A DNA stretch of 64,000 nt from an uncultured delta proteobacterium (GTDB taxonomy: Bacteria > Desulfobacterota > Desulfobacteria > Desulfobacterales > B30-G6), in NCBI GenBank assembly GCA_963823335.1, contig CAWGLD010000004.1:4382-68381 (forward strand), read 5' to 3'. This document shows positions 26,811 through 63,513 of this stretch, one piece after another. The first letter of the stretch is position 1. Each line of letters begins with the position of its first letter. The notes under the pieces are model-generated. The model saw only the letters and a list, made by a program, of their open reading frames with translations. It had not been told where the DNA came from and made no database searches. The translations under genes were made by a program, and so were the position numbers.

Positions 26811-26903
26811 TTTATATTTTAGGCTTTTCTCCCGATTTGTTGTAGAAATGCTGTTGGTGGAAGCCTTGTCGAAATCGGGATCGCTATCGGGATCGGGATC
26901 GAG

Positions 26904-27299
26904 ATGGTATTAGGTCATGAAAAATTAGACGTTTACCGCCTTTCAATCGGCTATGTCGCATGGGTTTATGAAAAGTGTGCCAGGCTGAGAGGCGTCCATC
27001 GTTCAGCAAGAGACCAGTGGCTTCGAGCCAGCCAGTCGATTGCGCTTAATATTGCAGAAGGCAACGGTAAGACAGCGAAGGCTGATCGGCGGCGATATTT
27101 CGAAATAGCGCGTGGGTCGGCATTGGAGTGTGCCGCAATCCAAGATGTCTTGGTAGTCGGAAAAGGTTTGGATAAAGTAGAAAGCCGGCAGCGCAAAGGT
27201 GAATTGGACCGCATTGCTGCAATGCTTAGTCGATTGGGCGGCAGGGGTTATAGCGTAAAGGAAGGGTTCGGGGAATACGGCTATACTGAACGGCAATAG
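26904..27299 (+). CDS. Four-helix-bundle protein (23S rRNA intervening-sequence protein / Avd-like family)
   Basis: KLDVYRLS...QWLRASQSIALNIAEGNGK...RRYFEIARGSALECAA, the family signature recalled for PF05635/TIGR02436-type proteins. Confidence 0.9.
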   Translation: MVLGHEKLDVYRLSIGYVAWVYEKCARLRGVHRSARDQWLRASQSIALNIAEGNGKTAKADRRRYFEIARGSALECAAIQDVLVVGKGLDKVESRQRKGELDRIAAMLSRLGGRGYSVKEGFGEYGYTERQ

Positions 27300-27403
27300 C
27301 GAGCGCATTCCCCGTAGCTTGCTGCGGGGTTAGCGAGCGAATCAAATAGATAAAATCCTTACCGCGAAGATTCCCTGCAGCTTGCTGCAGGGTACTCTTC
27401 AAT
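27298..27403 (-). repeat. Palindromic module family E, copy E2 (inverted relative to E3/E4)
   Basis: The reverse complement reads ATTGAAGAGTACCCTGCAGCAAGCTGCAGGGAAT...TTCGCTCGCTAACCCCGCAGCAAGCTACGGGGAATGCGCTCGCT. Confidence 0.8.
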
Positions 27404-27609
27404 TCGATCCCGATCCCGATCCCGATAGCGATTTCGATAAGATATAGCCCGAGCTGTATTTCTCTTGACCCGAATTTTGGAGCCCTTTCCTCCAACTAAA
27501 TTGGGAGAAGATCCATATTTTATTCCCGCATTATAATAGATATCTCCTAATTTCCGAGATCTCAATAGAATGCGATACAGCTCCAACAAAACAAGGTTAA
27601 CAGACCCCT

Positions 27610-27910: not shown

Positions 27911-28055
27911 ATTGAAGAACCTCGCAGCAAGCTACGAGGAATGTTCTGCTGTGCGACAGTGCTTCGCAGCGACCGTAAGGAATTCTGTCTAATTTAGATT
28001 CGCTCGCTAACCCCGCAGTAGGCTACGGGGAATGCGCTCGCTGTTGCGGTTCAAT
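27911..28055 (+). repeat. Palindromic module family E, copy E3 (full length)
   Basis: Three hairpins: CCTCG-CAGCAAGCTA-CGAGG, CTGCTG-TG-CGACAG and CCCCG-CAGTAGGCTA-CGGGG. Nearly identical to 41357-41525. Confidence 0.85.
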
Positions 28056-28084
28056 AAACCGTAAACGAGAGGTGAATAGACAAT

Positions 28085-28430: not shown

Positions 28431-28762
28431 GGATCATCTCCCAAAGAGTTGATCCAAATTAAGGATTCAAGGATTCCAGGGGCCCAGGGGTCGAGTGAGA
28501 TGAAGTGAGGTGCCAGCTAAATGCTTAAGAATTATAAAGAGTTAAATGTCTGGAAAAAAGCGTATAAACTTTGTTTGGATAAACGATGATATCCGGTGAT
28601 TTGGATTATATGAACAAGGAAAAGCTTCAGGGTTTAAGAGAGGCGCTTGGGAATGTAGAGAGAATGCTAAAAGCCATGATCACATCCCTGGAAAACAAAC
28701 ACTTGAATCCTTGAATCCTGGATTCCTTGAACCCTTTCTCCCAACTTATTGGGAGAAGATCC
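28431..28762 (+). mobile_element. Cassette copy C1: 4HB pseudogene with internal deletion, full termini
   Basis: GGATCATCTCCCAAAGAGTTGATCC...TCTCCCAACTTATTGGGAGAAGATCC. Remnants MLKNYKELNVWKKAYKLCLDKR* and, out of frame, GDLDYMNKEKLQGLREALGNVERMLKAMITSLENKHLNP*. Confidence 0.75.
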
Positions 28763-33700: not shown

Positions 33701-33934
33701 ATGTCCAGCCACGCATCCAATGCTAAGCTACTCTTCACCAATTGTATCAATCTCAACTCAAGAAGCTGCCGGTATACAAAGAAACCTGAAACTATCCTGT
33801 CCCTGTTCAGCGATCCAGAAAATTTCGCGGTCAGTGATCAGAAGATTCACGAACTGAACGACATATGTTCCCAATGTGATTCATACCATATGCCTGACAA
33901 ATTAAAAGATTTGGATCATCTCCCAAAGAGTTGA
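33701..33934 (+). CDS. Small Cys-rich protein (CX8C...CX2C), 3' end replaced by insertion of cassette C2
   Basis: Strong AAGGAGG lies 8 nt before ATG 33701. The reading frame enters the element at 33913, and removing the element restores ...PDKLKDLQ*. Confidence 0.45.
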   Translation: MSSHASNAKLLFTNCINLNSRSCRYTKKPETILSLFSDPENFAVSDQKIHELNDICSQCDSYHMPDKLKDLDHLPKS

Positions 33935-34174
33935 TCCAAATTAAGGATTCTAGGATTCCAGGAGTCCAGGGTTCGAGTGAGATGAAGTGAGGCATCAGCT
34001 AAATGCTTAAGAAGTATAAAGAGCTAAAAGTCTGGAAAACAAACACTTGAATCCTTGAATCCTGGACTCCTTGTACCCTTTCTCCCAACTAACCCTCATG
34101 TCCGGGGCGGTCACAACGAAGGATGAAAATATTGATGAGAATGATGGCTATTTTCATATAAATTGGGAGAAGAT
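33913..34174 (+). mobile_element. Miniature cassette copy C2 (ORF deleted) with a nested 72-nt insert in the terminal hairpin loop
   Basis: Flanked by ATTAAAAGATTT on both sides (33901-33912 and 34173-34184, with the rightmost AT shared with the element end). Confidence 0.8.
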
Positions 34175-34259
34175 TAAAAGATTTGCAGTGACCGTTGCGA
34201 TTCGTGCTATTTATACTTGCCTTATCTGCTTCCTGTAACTATATTGGATGATTAATTTT

Positions 34260-34454
34260 GGATCATCTCCCAAGGAGTTGATCCAAATTAAGGATTCAAG
34301 GATTCCAGGGGTCCAGGGCTCGAGTGAGATGAAGTGAGGCATCAGCTAAATGCTTAAGAATTATAAAGAGTTAAAAGTCTGGAAAACAAACACTTGAATC
34401 CTTGAATCCTTGACTCCTTGAACCCTTTCTCCCAATCTAATTGGGAGAAGATCC
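34260..34454 (+). mobile_element. Miniature cassette copy C3 (same deletion junction as C2)
   Basis: GGATCATCTCCCAAGGAG...ATGCTTAAGAATTATAAAGAGTTAAAAGTCTGG|AAAACAAACACTTGAATCC...TTGGGAGAAGATCC. Flanks are TTAATTTT / ATAACTTTTT. Confidence 0.8.
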
Positions 34455-51677: not shown

Positions 51678-54600
51678 CTATCTGTCAAGCGGGACCAGCC
51701 CGATGGAAAATTGTTCCATATGATAGATGGGCAGCCCGTCGACTGTCAACAGGCCATCGGCGGTGAGCACGGGAAATGGCTCTTCCACCACGTTTGTCAC
51801 CAGGGCAAGAAGCTCGATATGCCTGTTTTCTGGTGTGATTTGTCCACGATAGGTCCATCGATGACGGATATCCGATTTCAAGGTAAAGCAGTGATCGTCC
51901 CCCAGATGCGGCCATCGATCCAGGGCCATGAATTTCAGCACTTGTATCAGAGACTCCAGACCCAGCGACCCCGGGCAGACCGGATCACCCAGAAAATGAG
52001 CCTTGAAAAACCATTCCTTGGGCAGAACTTTTTTGGAGGCCCGGATGATACCGTATCCATGGGGTCCGCCTTCCGGGAAATAGGCCTCGATGTTATCGAT
52101 CATGCGTATGGCCCGTCCCGGCAACACCGCATTTTCATGGACATGACCGGATAAATCGTCCGGTGCCGTGGGTGTATGATCCACCATCGCTGTCTGCCTG
52201 TTGGTCACCGAATCCTCAGGCAGGGTATAGCGAGACATATCGATCTGATGCAATCCTACCTGCGCTGCGAGAGCTTCCTGGGTAAAAAAACCGAAATGTG
52301 TCTGCCCCTGATAAATCTTCTGCCCGGATTGTAATATCTGGAAATCAAAGTGCTCGATAATCATGTCACCGGCTTCAGACACCTGGGTCAGACGCGCTCG
52401 CGTGGTCAGGGGTCCTTTTTTTGCAGGCACATCCCTGCATAGTTCAGCAATACCACCCAGATTTCTGAATCTGAGATCTTTTTCACTTTGTAAGGCCGAA
52501 CCCAGGTATGCCGCCAGCCAGCCGCAGGGCTGAAGCGCAATTTCATTCAAAACGCAAAATGGCATAACAGGTGTACGGTTGGCCCTGAAAAACCAGTCAC
52601 CCGGGTCGATATCCACCTCGGACTCGATCCAATCACCGGGTTTTAATACCCAGGGCTCCGGTGCAACGTCAACCACCCGGTCCATGAAAAGATAGGGCGG
52701 TCTGGGCAACCTGGCAATGAAGCGCTGTTTGTCAAATACCTGATAGGGTTTTCCAAATGCTATAGAGGGTCTGCCGAACGAGAATTCCTCCAGCAGTTTC
52801 CGACTGAATGTTCTTGTACCGTTCTCTTTTTTTTCGGAAGGGTAGCGTTTTTCTGTGGTGATCTGCTGTGGGCCGATTTTCCAAATGCGTTCGATCTCTT
52901 CACGCGTGCCCTGGGTCAGTTTCATGGAAATACTGTCAAAATAAACAATGTACGACCCATCGGCGGTCATGTGGGCATCGGCAATCGCATATGGCTCCGG
53001 GTCATAGCCCATCTCTTTGATGTCGATTTCATATACAACATGTCGGGTGTTCGGTGTTACCGGTCCACGGCATTTCAGCACACTTTCAACCCCCACAACC
53101 GGTTCATAGCAGGCGCTTTCATTTTCACTGATCCATCCGATACGTTGCAGAAATATCCGCAATGTGTGTGCACAGCATTCGTACATGAGCGTGCCCGGCA
53201 TGACCATGTCATCGACGAAATGACAGGTCAGGTACCAATCGTCCGGATGAATATCCGCTTCGGCACGTATCAAGCCCTTACCAAAGGTCCCTCCATAGGG
53301 GTCGAATGTGAGAACACGATCGATGAGGTGCATGCGCCCGCCCGGCAGCCACAGAGAAGAAGCGATGCTTTTACCCTGAAACGCAGTACCAAATGCGTCC
53401 CCGAGTCGGCCTGACCTCAGGGCATCCAGGGCGGCCTCGGAAAATGTTTCAATTGTTACCGGGGCCGGATGCCGCCACTCAGCACCAAAATCTTCTTGCC
53501 TGCGAGTTCCATCCATCTTTTTAGCGACAATACCCCCGGAATTCCGCACCTCCTCCTCGGTAAAGAAGCCTGCACAGCCGTTTTTCATCTGAATGAACAG
53601 GTTGTCTTCGATAAACCCTTTGAATTTAAAGAAGAAAAGGTGCGTGTCTCCCTGACGGATAAATTTTTCGATCTCGATGTCGTAGCGAATCGTCTCGCCC
53701 GGCTGTGGCAGTCCCCTGAAAAACGTCACACAGGCATCCAGCAACCGATAGGTTCTGCGGCCCTTGACCACATGATCGATCCCCAGATACGAACTGAGGA
53801 ACAAATCTGCCTGACCAGCCTCCACCGAGATACAGGCAGGCGCGCGGTTACCATCCAGATACCAGGCCTCTGGAAGAACATCGTGTTCGGTCACAATCCG
53901 GCCAGTGCCCAGAGAACACTTTTCACCCACAAGGGAAACAACCCGATCCACGAGCATGAGGGGTTCGTCCGGAAGCCGCACCCGGGCCTGGTAGGTGTCG
54001 ACCACCTGGAATTCAGGACCGAATACCTCGGCCACAGATCCTGTAGCAAAAGTCAGACAGTCTTTCCTGGAATAAAGCGGGGTAACCCCTGATGAGGTCT
54101 GGTGCGTCCCGGGGCCTTTGGCAATGACCCCGGTTTTACGGATCTGCTTCATATGACCGGACAGGAGCTGGGCCTGCAGTGCCATGGCCTCCTGGTAGCC
54201 CTTTGTCATCTGGCTGGAAAATTCCAGGAACTGCTTGTGTGTTTCGGTGGTTGTCTGGGCATTTTCCTGAACAGACCGCATGAGGTCCCGGACTATCTGG
54301 CTGGAGACACTTTCGTGCAGCGGCCCTGAAATGGAATCCCTCCCCAACGGACGCTCGTTGGGTTCATGGATTTTCGATTTTTCCCCAGCTGAAATGCGTG
54401 AATCAATATGGCCCGGCAGTAAAGGTGGCGGCCCGGGGAAGGGCAGGGGAGCACCGACACGCAGATGGATTTGACGCGATGATTCTTTTTTGGATCCGGT
54501 TGCCGGTCCTGACAATGTATCATCATATACCTGATTCATTTCAGGAGGATACGAAAGACCTCCATATAATTTGTCGAGATGGACACCCACTTTTGCTGCG

Positions 54601-57600
54601 CTGAGCGCGCCCAACAGCTTCAATATTGAAAGGTATTCGTTGTCTTGGCTTGAACTGACAGCCAAAGCAAGATGGGGGCGACCTTCGAGCGTCTGCCCTA
54701 TCATTCGTGTGCAGGATGCCCGGGGTCCCATTTCGACAAAAACACGGATACCATCGTCATAGGCCTGTTCAATGGTGCGGGTAAAGTCGAACCCGTTGCG
54801 TGCCTGATCCAGTATGGATGCAGCAGCGTTTTCACTGGTCAGGTCATATGTATGGCCCCATGCACAACTGTAAAAACGCATAGTTGCGGATATGTCAGTG
54901 GGGTACAGATGAAGTTGGCGGTAAGCCTCCTCCACAGGTCTGAGCGCATCACAGTGAACCGTCACGACACCGTCAAGGGGAACGGCGTTACACCCCAGCA
55001 TTTTGACGACCTTCCAGATTGATTCTTTCTCGCCGCCTAACACCGATTCCCTGGGTGAATTAATGATCAGCAGACGGGTCATGGGAAATTGTTTAACAAC
55101 AGACATGACCTCGTCTGCCGCCCGATCAACCGCAACCACCTGCCATTCAAATCGTTTTTCAGGTTCGATGTTCCACGCCTTCCGGAGGGATAGACAGGGC
55201 CCGGTCAAGTCTGTCTTGAACAATGGTGATTCGAGCATCCGTTTCAAAAGCCGGTCTTGACCTTTCCAGACACCCATGGCAACCAAGCCAGCGGTTTCCC
55301 CGAGGCTGTACCCGATGACCGCCCTGGGTGGCGCCATGAACTGCTGCATCAGTCTGGCCGTGACAACCCCGTGCATTACCTGCCCGAAAATCGCCAACAG
55401 CGGATCGGCATGGATCCGATGCAAGGCCTGTATTTCCCATTGGTTTTCCCAGGACATCCGATAAGGCACAAAGCATTCGGGAATCATTTGCCTTTTCAAT
55501 TGCCCGGTTTCTGCATCCACCTGACCTATAAGCAATGGCCATTGGACCCCCATGTCCCGTCCCATACCAAGATAATGGTTTCCGGAGCCAGGAAAAACAA
55601 AGGCAATGCCGGCCGACTCCCCCAGGGGCTCGGGTGTGTAAAAGATGTTTGCATGCCCCGGAGAAGCGTCTGTCTTCCCTGAAGAAACGAGCTGTTTGGC
55701 TCTAAGAATCATGTTTTCGGCATCGTGAATATCTTTGACCACCAGGCTGAGCGCTCTTTTCTTACCCGGGGGTCTAGGTCTCTTATTTTCGTACCAGACC
55801 CGCGCGAGCCACTCCAGGGGTACGTCCATGGAATCCCATTTCCGGATCTGTTTCCAAAGGGTTTCCAGACCATCTAAAATCTCCTGGTCATGATCGCCTT
55901 CCACGACAAAAAGACCGCTGGACTGGTATCCCAGAGGGCGAAGTTTTTCCTGAACGAATCCAGGGGGCGATACCATCCCGGGGTCTTCATACCCTTCCAG
56001 AAGGACATGCATGCAGTTTCCATCGGACGTCATGGCACCCACACAGGCCCGGCGAGGATTGGTTTCCCGATCCCGATACCAGTACTGAGGTTTGATGGGA
56101 ACATGAAAACGTTCTTCCCATGCGATATCTCCGGGCCGTCGATAATCCGGCATGGGTGGTAAAAGGGCATGGTAAAGACACAGGCTTGTTTTCACAAGGG
56201 AAGACAAGCCTGATGCGGCACCCATGTGTCCCACAATCGCTTTGGTGCTGCTGACGGCGCAATGCAAGCCCTTTTCGGTCAAAACGGTATTCAATACCTT
56301 TGATTCCACGACATCTTCGGTAGGAATACCGCTTCCGTGTGCCTCATAGAGGCTGATATCCGACGACCCCACACGAGCATCCTGAATGGCACGCTCCAGG
56401 GAAACTTGGTATGCTTCCTGTGTTACGCCCCCACCTTCCGTCGCCATCCCACTGGCAGCGCCGAAGCCATTGACAATCGCATAAATACGATCTTTTTCCG
56501 CAATGGCGTCTTCCAGGCGTTTGAGCACCAGTGCCAGGCCGCCTTCTCCGGGAAGCGTCCCCTTAGCAGATGAATCAAAGGGCAATACAGGCGCTGTCTC
56601 GGAACAGGGTCGGGTCTGATGGTGTGTGGCCAGATATCTGATATCTCCGGTAAAATCCACAGCACCCACCAGCATCATGTCTGTGTCATTGTCCTGCAAG
56701 GCCCGGACACCTATTTCGAGGGCTTTGATACCGGAAGCTTCTTCGCAGGAGACAACAAAACTGGGCCCACCCAACAGAAATTCCTTGGCAATCCGGCTTG
56801 CAATGACACTGGTCAATGCACCCAGAGTCCGGTTGGATGTCAACGGTCGGCTTATAGAAGCTTTCAGGGAACGGACCCACTGGGCGGCATGGGGGTCCTG
56901 AAGGTTCAAGCCATATTTTTTTTCCCATCGGCGGATGCTTTCATTCACGATCCATCTTAAATGAAAATTGGTGGCCTCAAAGTCAAAATCCGCTCCCACC
57001 ATCACGCCCATGCGTGTCCGTTTCTCCCTGAGGGCAACACCGGCATCGATGAGAGCGTTTCGACAGAGCTTCATCATGAGCAGATGCTGCGGCAGAATAT
57101 CCGGTATTTCATTGGGGGGAACGTGAAACAGACCCATATCCAGGGCAACATCTTCCATGAACGCACCGTGTTCCGGAACCACCTGCCGGAAATAGGTATC
57201 CGGTCCGATTTGTGTGCCCCGAAGACGAGAGTGATGTTCGATGATGGATTGCCCCTTGAAAACAGCCTCCTGAAAAGCCCTCAGGGTCGACAGTTTCCCC
57301 ATGGCAGCGCTCATTCCGATAATCGCCACCAGGGGTTTTTCACTTGTCGATGTTTTAGAATAACCGTCTTCATCACCGTTCCCGGGGACAGCGTGATGTT
57401 GCAGATTTATGGTACCTCCAGCTCGCCTATTGGGACGGGTCCATTCTTCCAGAAGCATGTGGGCATTGATACCGCCGAATCCAAATGCGCTCACAGCGGC
57501 ACGACGGGGGGTGTCGGCATCTCGTAGACCCCAGTCGGTCACTTCGGTCTGGACCCTAAAAGGACTGTCGATCAAAGGACTGTTATCTGTCGGCTCCGAA

Positions 57601-58817
57601 TAGTTGTTTGATGGCGGTATGTTTTTATGTTTTAATGCAAGTAATACTTTAAGTGTTCCGGCTGCCCCGGCACCTGTTAGCAGATGCCCGATAGTAGCTT
57701 TGACCGAGCCGATGGGACAGACACCGGCATGGGTTGCAATGCCCTGCCACAGGGTTGCGAGACTGCTCAGTTCGGTATGATCCCCAAGGGGTGTGCCTGC
57801 CCCGTGGCATTCAATCAGGTCGACCTGATCCGGTGTCCACCCGGTGGTGTCATAGGCCATGCGCATGGCCCTTACCTGGCCTTCGCTCTTGGGCGCCAGG
57901 AGACTACCCCCCATATCGTTGGAAAGCCCGATGCTTTTGATGACCGCCAGTATATTGTCCTGGTCCCTTACAGCATCCTTCACCCGTTTCAGCACAAACA
58001 TGCCGGCACCTTCCCCGACAACCAAACCATCCGCAGATTTGTCAAAAGGTGCGCAACGACCCGACGGTGACAACGCGCGAAGCTGGGAGAACCCAACCTG
58101 CGTGTAAAGGCAGTCAGGCCGGGAGACCCCCCCCACCAACATGGCATCTGCCCTGTGTTGTGCCAGGGCATCGCAGGCAAGTTTGAATGCCACCAGCGAT
58201 GATGCACAGGCCGCATCCAGGGTATATGTACCGTTTCCGAGACCAAGGCCTTTGGCCAGCAACGCTGCTGGAAAACCGGTCATTTTGCCGGCCAGGCACT
58301 GGTTTCTGGTCAAAACCGACGCAATATCCCGGATCATGGGATCAAATAATCGTTTTTCGAGATAAGCCCCCAGAATTTTCTCCGCAACCAAAGAGGAAGC
58401 CTGCGTAGGAAGGGCGATGGCGGCCAGAATCACACCGGTTCGTTTCCGGTCGATGAATTCATGCCTGGCAGTGTAAAAAGCCTCTCTACCTGCGTGCAGC
58501 ACGATTCGGTGAAGTGGGTCAAGATCACGAACCAGGTCCTGGTCAAGATCCATATTGTCAAAACAGTAGTCGATATCCCGGTTCAGAAGGCAGGCTATCC
58601 TGGATATGGCTTTGTCGGGCCGCAGTTTATCTGCGGTCATCACAGCAGGGCCAACCCGCCAACGATCTTTTCCAACCACCTGGCAGGCATCTCTTTTATG
58701 AAGCAGATTATCCCAGAAGACATCCAGGGTGGTCGCGCCGGGTAAGAGTCCGGCCATACTGACAATGGCGATATTGTATGGCCGGGATGTTTGCATATAT
58801 TTGGTATCTTTCTGCAT
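51678..58817 (-). CDS. PUFA-synthase-type megasynthase, PfaC/Pfa3-like: KS - CLF(KS-like, Cys replaced) - AT - 2x FabA-like DH; no ACP, KR or ER recognised
   Basis: KS motifs DAACASS, ECHGAGT, KATIGHLLTGAG. Second KS-like domain has VSCEEASG at the active-site position. AT has GYSLGE. DH motifs are HFVDDMVMPGTLMYE and HFLGDPVCPGSLGLE. 2379 aa. Confidence 0.85.
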   Translation of the reverse strand: MQKDTKYMQTSRPYNIAIVSMAGLLPGATTLDVFWDNLLHKRDACQVVGKDRWRVGPAVMTADKLRPDKAISRIACLLNRDIDYCFDNMDLDQDLVRDLDPLHRIVLHAGREAFYTARHEFIDRKRTGVILAAIALPTQASSLVAEKILGAYLEKRLFDPMIRDIASVLTRNQCLAGKMTGFPAALLAKGLGLGNGTYTLDAACASSLVAFKLACDALAQHRADAMLVGGVSRPDCLYTQVGFSQLRALSPSGRCAPFDKSADGLVVGEGAGMFVLKRVKDAVRDQDNILAVIKSIGLSNDMGGSLLAPKSEGQVRAMRMAYDTTGWTPDQVDLIECHGAGTPLGDHTELSSLATLWQGIATHAGVCPIGSVKATIGHLLTGAGAAGTLKVLLALKHKNIPPSNNYSEPTDNSPLIDSPFRVQTEVTDWGLRDADTPRRAAVSAFGFGGINAHMLLEEWTRPNRRAGGTINLQHHAVPGNGDEDGYSKTSTSEKPLVAIIGMSAAMGKLSTLRAFQEAVFKGQSIIEHHSRLRGTQIGPDTYFRQVVPEHGAFMEDVALDMGLFHVPPNEIPDILPQHLLMMKLCRNALIDAGVALREKRTRMGVMVGADFDFEATNFHLRWIVNESIRRWEKKYGLNLQDPHAAQWVRSLKASISRPLTSNRTLGALTSVIASRIAKEFLLGGPSFVVSCEEASGIKALEIGVRALQDNDTDMMLVGAVDFTGDIRYLATHHQTRPCSETAPVLPFDSSAKGTLPGEGGLALVLKRLEDAIAEKDRIYAIVNGFGAASGMATEGGGVTQEAYQVSLERAIQDARVGSSDISLYEAHGSGIPTEDVVESKVLNTVLTEKGLHCAVSSTKAIVGHMGAASGLSSLVKTSLCLYHALLPPMPDYRRPGDIAWEERFHVPIKPQYWYRDRETNPRRACVGAMTSDGNCMHVLLEGYEDPGMVSPPGFVQEKLRPLGYQSSGLFVVEGDHDQEILDGLETLWKQIRKWDSMDVPLEWLARVWYENKRPRPPGKKRALSLVVKDIHDAENMILRAKQLVSSGKTDASPGHANIFYTPEPLGESAGIAFVFPGSGNHYLGMGRDMGVQWPLLIGQVDAETGQLKRQMIPECFVPYRMSWENQWEIQALHRIHADPLLAIFGQVMHGVVTARLMQQFMAPPRAVIGYSLGETAGLVAMGVWKGQDRLLKRMLESPLFKTDLTGPCLSLRKAWNIEPEKRFEWQVVAVDRAADEVMSVVKQFPMTRLLIINSPRESVLGGEKESIWKVVKMLGCNAVPLDGVVTVHCDALRPVEEAYRQLHLYPTDISATMRFYSCAWGHTYDLTSENAAASILDQARNGFDFTRTIEQAYDDGIRVFVEMGPRASCTRMIGQTLEGRPHLALAVSSSQDNEYLSILKLLGALSAAKVGVHLDKLYGGLSYPPEMNQVYDDTLSGPATGSKKESSRQIHLRVGAPLPFPGPPPLLPGHIDSRISAGEKSKIHEPNERPLGRDSISGPLHESVSSQIVRDLMRSVQENAQTTTETHKQFLEFSSQMTKGYQEAMALQAQLLSGHMKQIRKTGVIAKGPGTHQTSSGVTPLYSRKDCLTFATGSVAEVFGPEFQVVDTYQARVRLPDEPLMLVDRVVSLVGEKCSLGTGRIVTEHDVLPEAWYLDGNRAPACISVEAGQADLFLSSYLGIDHVVKGRRTYRLLDACVTFFRGLPQPGETIRYDIEIEKFIRQGDTHLFFFKFKGFIEDNLFIQMKNGCAGFFTEEEVRNSGGIVAKKMDGTRRQEDFGAEWRHPAPVTIETFSEAALDALRSGRLGDAFGTAFQGKSIASSLWLPGGRMHLIDRVLTFDPYGGTFGKGLIRAEADIHPDDWYLTCHFVDDMVMPGTLMYECCAHTLRIFLQRIGWISENESACYEPVVGVESVLKCRGPVTPNTRHVVYEIDIKEMGYDPEPYAIADAHMTADGSYIVYFDSISMKLTQGTREEIERIWKIGPQQITTEKRYPSEKKENGTRTFSRKLLEEFSFGRPSIAFGKPYQVFDKQRFIARLPRPPYLFMDRVVDVAPEPWVLKPGDWIESEVDIDPGDWFFRANRTPVMPFCVLNEIALQPCGWLAAYLGSALQSEKDLRFRNLGGIAELCRDVPAKKGPLTTRARLTQVSEAGDMIIEHFDFQILQSGQKIYQGQTHFGFFTQEALAAQVGLHQIDMSRYTLPEDSVTNRQTAMVDHTPTAPDDLSGHVHENAVLPGRAIRMIDNIEAYFPEGGPHGYGIIRASKKVLPKEWFFKAHFLGDPVCPGSLGLESLIQVLKFMALDRWPHLGDDHCFTLKSDIRHRWTYRGQITPENRHIELLALVTNVVEEPFPVLTADGLLTVDGLPIYHMEQFSIGLVPLDR

Positions 58818-59047: not shown

Positions 59048-59329
59048 ATGATGAGAACACAGAAATGGATCACGATTTTTATGCTGATAACCCTGGTCAT
59101 GCTTACGGGCAGTTATGCACTGGCCGAGGAACAGGGAAAAATCAACATCAATACAGCCACGGTGGAAGAACTGGTACAACTGGAGCGTGTCGGTCCCAGA
59201 TACGCAGAAAAAATAGTTGCCTTTCGTCAGGAGAACGGTCCCTTTAAGGCGCCTGAGGAGATCATGCTGGTAGCGGGCATCGGTGAGAAGACCTTCGAAA
59301 TCAATAAAGACCGGATCGTCATTAAATAA
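59048..59329 (+). CDS. ComEA-like helix-hairpin-helix DNA-binding protein with signal peptide
   Basis: ININTATVEELVQLERVGPRYAEKIVAFRQENGPF...LVAGIGEKTFE. AGGAGGA RBS. Confidence 0.85.
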   Translation: MMRTQKWITIFMLITLVMLTGSYALAEEQGKININTATVEELVQLERVGPRYAEKIVAFRQENGPFKAPEEIMLVAGIGEKTFEINKDRIVIK

Positions 59330-59477
59330 TAATGCCTGGACTGTAGACAACTGATAGTGTGCGACCCCGCGGGCTCCCGTCCTATCATCTCAAAGGAGTC
59401 ATTTCATTCGATCAAGGCAATGCGTTAGCCTTTCCCGCTATTTCATCCCGCGGGGTCAGCCGTTCAGGTCAGGAACA

Positions 59478-59600
59478 CCGAATCGAGCGATTGTCGAGGT
59501 TGCCGTTCGGCAAGGCAGCTGCGGGTTCCGCGAATGTAAACTAGCGGGATCGTACGGACGCTGCAGACTGCGGTACGTCAGCAGTCCCAGCGGGTTGCAG
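59478..59600 (+). repeat. Diverged repeat X (partner Y at 40226-40350) within the long leader of the 4HB-ERCC4 operon
   Basis: Contains the perfect 22-mer GAGCGATTGTCGAGGTTGCCGT (59485-59506), followed by hairpins with substitutions relative to Y. Confidence 0.7.
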
Positions 59601-59695
59601 ATTTTGAATTAAATGAATCAAATCCTTTGAAAGATGGGTTGCCGAACCCCAAGGAAGATCTGAACCGCCATTTAGGTAAAAGAAAGGAGAGAGCC

Positions 59696-60106
59696 ATGGA
59701 CTACGCCTACCAACGACTGGACATCTGGAAAAAGGCGGTCGATCTTTCCATCAAGGTCATTCAATGTATCGCCGAAGTGGCCAATGAGGTTGAAACACAG
59801 CGCCTTACCGAGGAAATCGAAATGAGTGCCGTCAATATTGCCACAAACATCGCCAAGGGAAAAGCCTGTTTGTCGGAGGAGGATTTCATTTATTATCTGT
59901 TTTTGTCAAAAAGATCACTGTATGAAACCATGACACTGCTGGAAATTCTCAAAGCCAAACAGTTGATTACCGACGAGTGCTACATGGAAATCGAAACAAA
60001 AGGAAAAAACATCACTGGAATGCTGATTGAATTTATCCGCTCAGTCAAAGAAACCGGCAGCCCCTATCAGGCAGAAAACTACCAGGCTGCTTACAGAAAC
60101 CGATAG
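59696..60106 (+). CDS. Four-helix-bundle protein (divergent 23S-IVS-protein/Avd-like), copy a
   Basis: RLDIWKKAVDLSIKV...SAVNIATNIAKGK...FLSKRSLYETMTLLEIL. AAGGAGAG RBS before ATG 59696 (the track start at 59627 is less likely). Confidence 0.8.
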   Translation: MDYAYQRLDIWKKAVDLSIKVIQCIAEVANEVETQRLTEEIEMSAVNIATNIAKGKACLSEEDFIYYLFLSKRSLYETMTLLEILKAKQLITDECYMEIETKGKNITGMLIEFIRSVKETGSPYQAENYQAAYRNR

Positions 60107-60121
60107 AACAAAAGGAGATAA

Positions 60122-60514
60122 ATGATGACCTATATCTATGAAAAGCTCGACGTCTGGCAAAAAGCCATGCAGTTTGCCGGGGATGTCATTGATTCCATGT
60201 CGATGATGAACAGCAAAGACTACCATCAAGAGATTTTAGAGAAAACAGAAGGGAGTGCAGCCGGTATCGCCGGCGCCATTGCCATGGGAAAATCCTACAG
60301 TTCAAAACACGATTTCGCCAGACATCTGTATCATTCCAGGGGCGCCTTGTACGAAACCATGACTCTGTTGGAGTTGTTGAAACGTAAACGCCTCGTTGCC
60401 GAAGATAAATTTGCTGATTTCGACACCAGGGCAAACCAACTGACCGCCATGCTGACCGCCCTGATTAAATCGATTTACACACCCAAATCGGACAATGGCA
60501 AACAATCATCATAA
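60122..60514 (+). CDS. Four-helix-bundle protein, copy b (paralogue of copy a)
   Basis: KLDVWQKAMQFAGDV...GAIAMGKSYSSKHDFARHLYHSRGALYETMTLLELL. AAGGAGA RBS. Confidence 0.8.
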   Translation: MMTYIYEKLDVWQKAMQFAGDVIDSMSMMNSKDYHQEILEKTEGSAAGIAGAIAMGKSYSSKHDFARHLYHSRGALYETMTLLELLKRKRLVAEDKFADFDTRANQLTAMLTALIKSIYTPKSDNGKQSS

Positions 60515-61157
60515 GCGTCAACCTCCTGAGATGAGGCTGATAATTTCAGTCGATTACAGAGAAAGGCCTTCCGGACTTCCCGATCTTCTGGTTGATGCAG
60601 GATTTGAGGTGGCTATAGTCAAGCTCCCTTATTGTGACTACATAATTAACCATGGAATATCCATCGAAAGAAAAACCGGCAGGGATTTCGCTATCTCAAT
60701 CATCGACGGCAGACTATTTAAACAGGCCAGTTGGATGCGAAAGCGAACCAATCGGCCTGTTTTTCTCCTGGAAGGAAGTCCGTTTCATGTCGATGTGGAC
60801 ATACATAAGAAGGCGATTAAGGGCGCAATGCTTTCTATACAAGTCGCATGGAGCATCCCCATCATTTATTCTCGATCTATGGAGGAAACATGCAATATTT
60901 TCAGAACACTGGCAACCCAGCAGGAAAACCAGACCGAACGCCTGGAACTCAGGCACGGTTTTCGATCCAAACGGATGATCTCAAAACGGTTGTATCTTCT
61001 ACAAGGGCTTCCAAATATTGGTCCGGTTATGGCTCTGAGATTGATCAGACATTTTAAAACAGTCCACCGTGTTATGAACGCCAGTATCGATGAATTAACG
61101 GAAGTGGATGGCATTGGGGAAGATACTGCTGATAAGATCCAGGAAATTCTCCGGTAA
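60495..61157 (+). CDS. ERCC4-domain (XPF/Mus81/Hef-type) nuclease with C-terminal (HhH)2
   Basis: VDYRE...CDYII...ISIERKTGRDFAISIIDGRLFKQ...PVFLLEG. The HhH segment is LQGLPNIGPVMALRL...EVDGIGEDTADKI. Overlaps 4HB-b by 20 nt (alternative ATG at 60531). Confidence 0.9.
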   Translation: MANNHHKRQPPEMRLIISVDYRERPSGLPDLLVDAGFEVAIVKLPYCDYIINHGISIERKTGRDFAISIIDGRLFKQASWMRKRTNRPVFLLEGSPFHVDVDIHKKAIKGAMLSIQVAWSIPIIYSRSMEETCNIFRTLATQQENQTERLELRHGFRSKRMISKRLYLLQGLPNIGPVMALRLIRHFKTVHRVMNASIDELTEVDGIGEDTADKIQEILR

Positions 61158-61213
61158 ATTCGTTTAAGCAACATGGTATAGAATATAGATAAGCCACGCA
61201 AGTGGCGTCAAAT

Positions 61214-61248
61214 AAAATCGGATAGTTTAACTATCCGATTTTATTTTT
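61214..61248 (+). terminator. Rho-independent terminator of the 4HB-4HB-ERCC4 operon
   Basis: AAAATCGGATAG-TTTAA-CTATCCGATTTT followed by ATTTTT. A perfect 12-bp stem. Confidence 0.8.
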
Positions 61249-61477: not shown

Positions 61478-62059
61478 ATGAATCACCAAGATATCCGAAC
61501 CCTGAAAATTCTTGAAGAAATCGAGAAGGGCTCCCGATTGAGCCAGCGCTCCCTGGCAAAGCATCTCAATGTTTCTCTGGGCTTGGTAAACTCACAATTA
61601 AAACGCCTGGCTGACAGAAGCTTTTACACGGTTGGCAGCATACCGAAAAACCGGATCACGTATATTCTAACGCCGAAAGGTATTGAAGAAAAAAACCGGC
61701 TCACCTATGAGTATATTCAGTTCTCTTTGCAATATTATATAGATATACGTCATAAAATAAAGCGTACCCTCAACAAATTGGTAGATGACGGCACGCACAG
61801 TATCATATTTTACGGCACCAGCGACCTGGCAGAAATTACCTATGTCTCACTCCAGCAAACACCGCTGAAATTCAAAGCACTGGTGGATCATGATCATAAA
61901 GGCAACCTGTTTTTTGGTCATCGCATCCAATCATTTGATGCGCTCGACATTATAAACTTCGATAAAATCCTGATCACCGCCTTTTCCACCACGGAAAATC
62001 CCGTGGATGTATTGATGAAAAAGAATGTTCACAAGGATAAGATCATTTTGATCACATAA
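61478..62059 (+). CDS. Winged-helix (MarR/Rrf2-like) regulator with C-terminal alpha/beta domain
   Basis: N-terminal LKILEEIEKGSRLSQRSLAKHLNVSLGLVNSQLKRL. The C-terminal half is unassigned. Confidence 0.55.
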   Translation: MNHQDIRTLKILEEIEKGSRLSQRSLAKHLNVSLGLVNSQLKRLADRSFYTVGSIPKNRITYILTPKGIEEKNRLTYEYIQFSLQYYIDIRHKIKRTLNKLVDDGTHSIIFYGTSDLAEITYVSLQQTPLKFKALVDHDHKGNLFFGHRIQSFDALDIINFDKILITAFSTTENPVDVLMKKNVHKDKIILIT

Positions 62060-63381: not shown

Positions 63382-63513
63382 ATGAACATCGAACATCGAA
63401 CGTCCAACATTGAATTTTGAATTTAAAAAGATGAAGAAACAGAAATATTTCGATATTGGTTTTTTTGTTTCCATTCGACATTGGACGTTCGATGTTCGAT
63501 GTTGGACGTTCAT
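63382..63513. repeat. Complete palindrome of family D (arms of TCGATGT/TGGACGT words, about 59-nt loop)
   Basis: The left arm ATGAACATCGAACATCGAACGTCCAACATTGAA and the right arm TTCGACATTGGACGTTCGATGTTCGATGTTGGACGTTCAT share a 23-nt perfect complementary core. Confidence 0.85.

Follow-up and report, generated by a model that had tools for sequence, protein, structure and literature searches.

Paired four-helix-bundle genes of probable cassette origin beside a short XPF-type nuclease gene in uncultured Desulfobacterales

We analyzed a window of 64,000 nucleotides (nt) from an uncultured delta proteobacterium of the Desulfobacterales (lineage B30-G6; assembly GCA_963823335.1, contig CAWGLD010000004.1, positions 4,382 to 68,381), in which the genes of two four-helix-bundle (4HB) proteins, 4HB-a and 4HB-b, are followed on the same strand by the gene of an ERCC4 nuclease (Table 1). 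The original prediction, made from the letters alone, had described two paralogous 4HB proteins, an AAGGAG ribosome-binding site for each of them, a nuclease open reading frame (ORF) overlapping 4HB-b by 20 nt and a perfect terminator closing the unit, and this description proved accurate: both proteins belong to PF05635 (71.4 bits for 4HB-a and 66.2 bits for 4HB-b, cutoff 33.8) and to TIGR02436, “four helix bundle protein” (67.6 and 64.2 bits, cutoff 24), they are 38% identical over 117 amino acids (aa; E 3e-20), both Shine-Dalgarno sequences are present, the overlap is exactly 20 nt (60495-60514), and the arms of the terminator are fully complementary. The terminator has a perfect stem of 17-18 bp (17 bp in the predicted fold, -22 kcal/mol, z = -5.7) with an A-run 5' of the stem and a U-run 3' of it (bidirectional type); a terminator-scanning program failed to detect it, probably because the A/U-rich stem swallows the T-run. 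The three genes are predicted to be co-transcribed. A promoter scan was uninformative (7 sites, 5.2 expected), and Rfam at gathering threshold matched only two tRNAs in the whole window and nothing within the locus.

Table 1. Features of the unit and of its surroundings, in positions of the window.
Feature	Positions	Strand	Details
4HB-a	59696-60106	+	136 aa; PF05635 E 8.8e-20; TIGR02436 E 9.8e-19
Shine-Dalgarno of 4HB-a, AAGGAG	59684-59689	+	6 nt ahead of ATG
4HB-b	60122-60514	+	130 aa; PF05635 E 3.6e-18
Shine-Dalgarno of 4HB-b, AAGGAG	60112-60117	+	
ERCC4 short XPF/Hef-type nuclease	60495-61157	+	220 aa; PF02732 E 1.9e-25
Intrinsic terminator	61210-61246	+	arms 61210-61227 / 61229-61246, 100% complementary
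Divergent mosaic segment, ERCC4 residues ~82-220 and 3' untranslated region	60740-61220	+	
comEA-like gene, secreted helix-hairpin-helix DNA-binding protein	59048-59329	+	93 aa
Hairpin in comEA/4HB-a spacer, GACCCCGCGGG ... CCCGCGGGGTC	59363-59373 / 59447-59457	+	read from sequence
PfaA-like polyunsaturated-fatty-acid/polyketide synthase	51678-58817	minus	2379 aa
MarR/EPS-type regulator	61478-62059		

In the orthologs and in the public annotation 4HB-b begins at its second Met (60125), which gives a protein of 129 aa, and the purine-rich Shine-Dalgarno sequence ahead of 4HB-a is kept in 15 of 15 aligned loci. 4HB-a is acidic (isoelectric point, pI, of 5.0 in the window and 4.8-5.1 across the clade of related loci) and carries the conserved tail SPYQAENYQ at its C-terminus; 4HB-b ranges from neutral to basic, and no signal sequence was read in the sequence of either protein. 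An AlphaFold2 model of 4HB-a (predicted local distance difference test, pLDDT, 86) has helices at residues 8-25, 32-56, 61-87 and 93-117 and a low-confidence helix in the tail. Compared by Foldseek, this model superposes on 2GSC and 2RLD with a template-modelling (TM) score of ~0.9 (root-mean-square deviation 1.6 Å) and on the Avd structures 4DWL and 8UB7 with a TM score of 0.75-0.78. The crystal entries 2GSC and 2RLD contain five chains each; we take such five-chain PF05635 entries to be pentamers, and by analogy with them 4HB-a and 4HB-b probably form an Avd-like, pentamer-like oligomer. In place of the canonical NIAEG motif, 4HB-a carries NIAKG, which is invariant within its orthogroup, and the 4HB-b orthogroup has AIAMG, AIAAG or AIAEG; NIAKGK and AIAMGK had been read correctly from the window and attributed to drift, but they are variants conserved within each orthogroup.

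4HB-a and 4HB-b are the most conserved proteins of the neighbourhood and are under strong purifying selection. Across the clade, 4HB-a is 77-92% identical to the window protein, with a ratio of nonsynonymous to synonymous substitution rates (dN/dS) of 0.02-0.12, and 4HB-b is 58-90% identical (dN/dS 0.07-0.23), compared with 64-83% for the ketosynthase (KS) region of the polyunsaturated-fatty-acid (PUFA) synthase, 62-83% for the comEA-like protein, 72-78% for the MarR-type regulator and 48-54% for the nuclease (79% in L082; L numbers designate the loci compared). The 4HB-b orthogroup is sharply bounded (58-100% identity, a single outlier at 50%, then 36% or less), and the a/b subfamily is tiny, comprising about five clusters at 50% identity with E<1e-20 among 1.8 billion representatives.

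Look-ups of ERCC4 and 4HB-b homologs, together with a metagenome scan, placed the arrangement in at least 22 loci of uncultured Desulfobacterales (13 genome-derived or on long contigs and 9 from metagenomes). The order of the block is the same in all of these loci, i.e., PUFA synthase (minus strand), comEA-like gene, 4HB-a, sometimes a third PF05635 gene, 4HB-b and ERCC4, and the comEA-like gene lies upstream of 4HB-a wherever upstream sequence is visible. The association proposed from the single window thus recurs in other genomes, but it is conserved in one clade only: among the best 80 of 582 species-level ERCC4 loci, the PF05635 pair stands beside the nuclease gene in four (L002, L003, L007 and L009), and the other 76 have no a/b-type neighbour. 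A broader PF05635 hidden Markov model built from diverse sequences added a single neighbour, in L024, which was set aside as an opposite-strand, cassette-type copy outside the clade. All 4HB-linked ERCC4s form one clade in neighbour-joining trees (no bootstrap); the PF05635-ERCC4 association thus arose once and was inherited inside the syntenic block, so that its conservation does not count as repeated, independent support for a functional link. Where Desulfobacterales lack the pair, ERCC4 directly follows the comEA-like gene, which we take as the ancestral state, and the slot between the two is either empty or occupied by HEPN+MNT (L030, L015) or a 130-aa ORF (L005). The slot ahead of ERCC4 is, moreover, a hotspot for small selfish modules, namely HEPN+MNT, antitoxin+PemK, Xre/HigA-like genes and PF05635 cassettes (L030, L015, L005, L092, L106, L109, L116, L147, L157 and L171).

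Outside the syntenic clade, the relatives most similar to a and b (43-48% identity) are encoded by single genes, carry NIAEG and lie in unrelated contexts. The metagenomes hold 48 such singleton loci, with no ERCC4 or comEA gene nearby, and inverted repeats of short words (“word arms”) of 12-39 nt surround 20 of the 25 singletons examined. The window's only other PF05635 gene (26904-27299) is likewise canonical in its NIAEG motif, encodes a basic protein (pI 9.7, the one cassette for which the pI was computed) and lies between two 38-nt word arms in inverted orientation (26865-26902 / 27404-27441, 87% complementary). In L086 and L089/L090 an inserted arm-flanked cassette separates a from b, and L003 has a cassette fragment at that place. 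By sequence, a and b are most closely related to these arm-flanked, IVS-like elements (IVS, 23S rRNA intervening sequence; window 26865-27441, the middle genes of L086 and L089, and the 48 singletons) and share with them the hallmark ...SRGSLYETMTLLEIL...; the cassettes are single NIAEG genes with inverted word repeats in changing contexts, and none of this holds for a and b, around which no bracketing inverted repeat was found. The comparison suggests a mobile cassette subtype as the ancestor of a and b, with loss of the arms and a change of NIAEG to NIAKG (a) or AIA[MAE]G (b). That the 4HB pair lacks word arms and is domesticated had been proposed from the window alone, and the altered motif, the fixed synteny, the strong purifying selection and the arm-flanked relatives all agree with it.

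The nuclease consists of an ERCC4 domain (residues 19-136) and a C-terminal tandem helix-hairpin-helix domain, (HhH)2 (residues 168-220; HHH_5 E 6e-13, HHH_2 E 2.8e-11), which aligns with the HhH domain of Hef (1X2I). It matches the profile of the Hef nuclease C-terminal region (E 2.7e-56) and aligns end to end (residues 12-219) with the XPF of Aeropyrum pernix, 2BGW (E 2e-28; profile 3e-41). The catalytic motifs VDYRE...CDY...ERKTGRD...DGRLF are intact and align with those of 2BGW, residues D20, R22, E23, D48, Y49, E58, R59, K60 and D64 are invariant among 27 homologs, and the metal-binding signature GDXnERKX3D is present, with CDY replacing GDY in the window's clade; the intact ERKxxxD site and the C-terminal (HhH)2 noted at the outset are thereby upheld. 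The protein is an ordinary bacterial member of the archaeal short XPF/Hef-nuclease family, predicted to act as a homodimeric endonuclease cutting 3' flaps and forks. We know of no biochemical characterization of bacterial members of this family. Homologs of similar length are common (154 matches in Desulfobacterales metagenomes and 582 relatives in species-representative genomes, the taxa including Brocadiales, Omnitrophota, Spirochaetes, Pseudoalteromonas rubra and, as full-length Hef, archaea), and no relatives were found on viral contigs.

The start codon of the nuclease gene lies inside 4HB-b and has no strong Shine-Dalgarno sequence of its own; because of these two features, synthesis of the nuclease is probably low and translationally coupled to that of 4HB-b. 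The ATG located 20 nt ahead of the 4HB-b stop is kept in 11 of 12 aligned junctions, which contain no indels, and in four loci (including the one without the upstream ATG) an ATG or GTG stands no more than 2 nt past that stop. The public annotation of the window protein (P0001, 208 aa) begins at Met13 (60531). The 220-aa form is more likely, because the orthologs have no Met at position 13 and keep the upstream ATG within 4HB-b. Residues 8-13 of the N-terminal extension are not conserved, and the move of the start codon seems to have produced the extension as a side effect. At its other end the protein stops at the last HhH helix (...KIQEILR) and has no C-terminal tail for interaction with the sliding clamp, PCNA, which binds the C-terminal tail of crenarchaeal short XPF. 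Uncoupled ERCC4s of Desulfobacterales (L001-L034) mostly carry a tail of 4-8 aa, D-x-E-[VIW]-x (DAEVY, DTEVL, DAEIS and others), which may serve to bind a partner. ERCC4s lacking a tail are also found in Brocadiales that have no 4HB gene.

The nuclease gene of the window is, in addition, a mosaic. Compared with L085, L002 and L084, the alignable sequence from comEA to nt 60740 within ERCC4 has mostly ~65-90% nucleotide identity, identity between 60740 and 61220 is ~50%, and in the terminator it is back to 88-91%. Over residues 82-220, protein identity of the window type to related genomes is just 29-54%. Compared with other linked ERCC4s, the middle part of the segment is at most 43% and the HhH2 part 43-54% identical, apart from L082, which is of the same type and ~80% identical; the HhH2 part is 58-65% identical to unlinked ERCC4s. 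Despite this swap 4HB-a and 4HB-b are still 87-92% identical and show no correlated change. A divergent segment with such sharp boundaries indicates recombination, an allelic replacement inside the nuclease gene. Accelerated evolution of ERCC4 had been the first reading of these differences; it gave way to the nucleotide profile, in which much of the effect in the window is the bounded segment. A 15-nt inverted repeat (60720-60734 / 60748-60762) is located at the 5' breakpoint.

The pair is independent of ERCC4. Two loci, L093 (GCA_964435695.1) and L094, consist of the comEA-like gene, a, b, a terminator homologous to that of the window directly after 4HB-b, and a dTDP-sugar isomerase gene, with no ERCC4; between these two loci dN/dS is 0.07 for a and 0.18 for b. 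In L096, a close relative of the window in which 4HB-a differs at only a few positions, both 4HB genes are intact and are followed by an ERCC4 remnant of ~135 aa (L096 3341-3775) without the CDY...ERK...DGRLF core and then by the homologous terminator; the remnant could be the result of real decay or an assembly artefact. Seven loci (L092, L106, L109, L116, L147, L157 and L171) have genes inserted between b and ERCC4, i.e., antitoxin+PemK, Xre-like or further cassette genes. In this sister lineage the nuclease starts from a codon of its own, is without the N-terminal extension and has kept the C-terminal tail. (The ERCC4 gene of L092 looks frameshifted and was considered as a pseudogene, but the contig also fragments the PUFA synthase gene and the frameshift was treated as an assembly error.) An obligate role of the pair as nuclease subunits is thus unlikely; a facultative link between a/b and the nuclease is possible.

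The explanation we favour, to which we give somewhat better than an even chance, is that of a clade-specific unit in which a domesticated, cassette-derived pair with a function of its own stands beside a pre-existing short XPF gene. A PF05635 “23S-rRNA-IVS protein” cassette of the YETMTLLE subtype would have inserted between the comEA-like gene and a housekeeping short-XPF gene and would then have been duplicated; both copies would have lost their inverted word arms and been domesticated as a fixed pair, the cellular function of which would not require the nuclease. The nuclease would be a housekeeping bacterial short XPF older than the pair, and in the core subclade that includes the window its gene would secondarily have been joined onto 4HB-b, the start being captured 20 nt inside. 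Several points weigh against this explanation. All 19 tightly coupled ERCC4s with a readable 3' end lack the tail, as in the window, and tail loss would be consistent with a new partner acquired after coupling; relative to comEA, ERCC4 diverges more quickly in the linked clade than elsewhere; disappearance or decay of ERCC4, seen in only three loci, could be recent; the tight stop/start coupling of about 22 loci might itself be a sign that a constant a/b:nuclease ratio is selected for, and a functional link would follow from that; and the ERCC4 trees are neighbour-joining trees without bootstrap.

The original prediction had given the pair the possible role of targeting or regulatory subunits of the nuclease. 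In this explanation 4HB-a and 4HB-b would be dedicated accessory subunits directing the ERCC4 nuclease to the hairpins or cruciforms of word-arm cassettes and might replace the partner that binds the tail. It is supported by the junction of 4HB-b and the nuclease gene, at which about 22 loci have either the 20-nt overlap or a stop and a start that abut, by the missing tail of the coupled ERCC4s compared with the uncoupled Desulfobacterales orthologs, by the plentiful word-arm hairpins of the window, and by Avd, a structural relative (TM 0.75-0.78) that is an adaptor for both enzyme and nucleic acid. Because crenarchaeal short XPF requires the PCNA clamp as an essential cofactor (PMC2836553), a change of cofactor in the coupled clade is conceivable. 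We nevertheless regard the subunit role as unlikely, because the pair is under purifying selection without ERCC4 (L093, L094) and beside an ERCC4 without catalytic core (L096), toxin-antitoxin modules separate b from ERCC4 in seven loci of the sister lineage, 76 of the 80 species-level ERCC4 loci lack an adjacent a/b-type gene, and the association has a single origin. Residues 82-220 of the nuclease are 29-54% identical while a and b remain at 87-92%, residues 8-13 of the N-terminal extension vary, 4HB-a is acidic, unlike the nucleic-acid-binding Avd and the basic cassette copy (pI 9.7), and the Brocadiales have tail-less ERCC4s without any 4HB gene. A narrower version, in which an a/b hetero-oligomer of the core clade would serve as short XPF cofactor in place of the tail partner and recruit the nuclease to stems or cruciforms of the word-arm cassette family from which the pair itself comes, is less probable again. 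In that case a protein domesticated from a mobile element would guide a structure-specific nuclease of the host so as to restrain, or mobilise, the relatives of that element.

Slightly less credence still goes to a functional tie between the pair and the comEA-like gene, in DNA uptake or periplasmic DNA binding, with ERCC4 merely the next gene. The comEA-like gene is indeed immediately upstream wherever it can be seen, even in loci without ERCC4, and the spacer to 4HB-a can be as short as 40 nt; yet one insertion event followed by conserved synteny predicts the same pattern, many loci have a long, variable spacer (366 nt in the window, including a 180-nt insertion), and the ComEA-like protein, with its signal peptide, is extracytoplasmic, but a and b show no signal sequence. 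It seems very improbable to us that the triad is a toxin-antitoxin or anti-phage module with the nuclease as effector and the 4HB proteins as inhibitor or sensor. That the same slot is taken by HEPN+MNT (L030, L015) or PemK modules elsewhere, and that ERCC4 is the fastest-evolving and a mosaic gene of the block, as is often the case for defence genes, would suit such a module, but PADLOC matched none of the three proteins (0 families), no relatives occur on viral contigs, and the genes occupy a stable position, passed on vertically, without any trace of mobility. Moreover, ERCC4 orthologs are widely found alone, so the nuclease is not intrinsically toxic, and the would-be antitoxins are still under selection after loss of the nuclease.

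Among known systems, the ERCC4 + (HhH)2 layout of ~220 aa is shared with archaeal short XPFs (2BGW/2BHN) and with the Pyrococcus Hef nuclease domain (1J22), and all their catalytic motif residues are conserved in the window nuclease, which differs from them in being bacterial, in lacking the clamp-binding tail and a helicase domain, in having CDY for GDY, and in the translational nesting of its gene in a PF05635 gene. The predicted fold of 4HB-a superposes on members of the PF05635/TIGR02436 “23S rRNA intervening-sequence protein” family (2GSC, 2RLD), but a and b are a fixed syntenic pair of diverged paralogs, not scattered single copies, and they are set apart by the altered NIAEG, the absence of flanking inverted arms and the acidity of 4HB-a. 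PF05635 is a very large family, of which Avd is, to our knowledge, the only understood member; most copies behave like small selfish cassettes. Avd of diversity-generating retroelements (4DWL, 8UB7) belongs to the same fold class with only 12% sequence identity and is basic, unlike the acidic 4HB-a. No reverse transcriptase or template/variable repeat lies near a and b, and the bAvd profile PF22296 has no match at E<=0.01 among the proteins of the unit. Avd is nevertheless a precedent for a PF05635-like adaptor of a nucleic-acid enzyme (PMC10053308).

In the literature searched, on PF05635, the IVS protein and bacterial XPF, we found nothing functional beyond Avd and archaeal/eukaryotic XPF, and no description of a fixed a/b pair under strong selection that is combined with a nested gene for a short XPF. 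A fixed, strongly selected pair of cassette origin offers a tractable entry point to the function of PF05635, and the locus draws attention to a little-studied bacterial branch of archaeal-type short XPF in which the clamp-binding tail is absent and gene evolution is mosaic. If the pair does modulate the nuclease, it would represent a novel kind of XPF cofactor; otherwise the locus would be a clean example of an insertion capturing the translation start of a housekeeping neighbour.

The unit is surrounded in the window by the PUFA synthase, comEA-like, MarR-type and LbH genes. The comEA-like protein matches PF12836 (HHH_3, E 1.3e-21) and TIGR00426 (ComEA HhH region, E 2.6e-20). The spacer between comEA and 4HB-a folds as RNA no better than shuffled sequence (z = -0.76); its hairpin (Table 1) is also found in L082, L085 and L002, and its 180-nt insertion (59480-59660) is specific to the window (L085, L002 and L084 do not have it) and contains an imperfect inverted repeat of its own (59500-59520 / 59632-59652). 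Same-strand adjacency of the comEA-like and ERCC4 genes is conserved across Desulfobacterales (L008, L010-L012, L014, L022, L032-L034), and the MarR/EPS-type regulator is a recurrent neighbour of the two in varying order, which hints at a DNA-uptake or polysaccharide-locus neighbourhood of the nuclease. The PfaA-like synthase is a conserved divergent neighbour of the block, with KS-KS-AT-FabA domains in related loci.

The arms of the cassette at 26865-27441 are built from the words ATCGGG/ATCGCT, and two near-identical hairpins lie downstream within it (27307-27330, 27370-27393); a 63-nt inverted repeat (27284-27346 / 27994-28056) is 90% complementary. Intergenic hairpins without a PF05635 gene occur at 28457-28724, 33909-34288, 33952-34079, 34290-34419 and 63382-63513, one of them 2.2 kb downstream of ERCC4. 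They are built from short repeated words (AAGGATTC..., GAACATCGAAC...) and resemble the cassette arms in the manner of derivatives of the type of miniature inverted-repeat transposable elements; words of the same type flank the cassette in L024.

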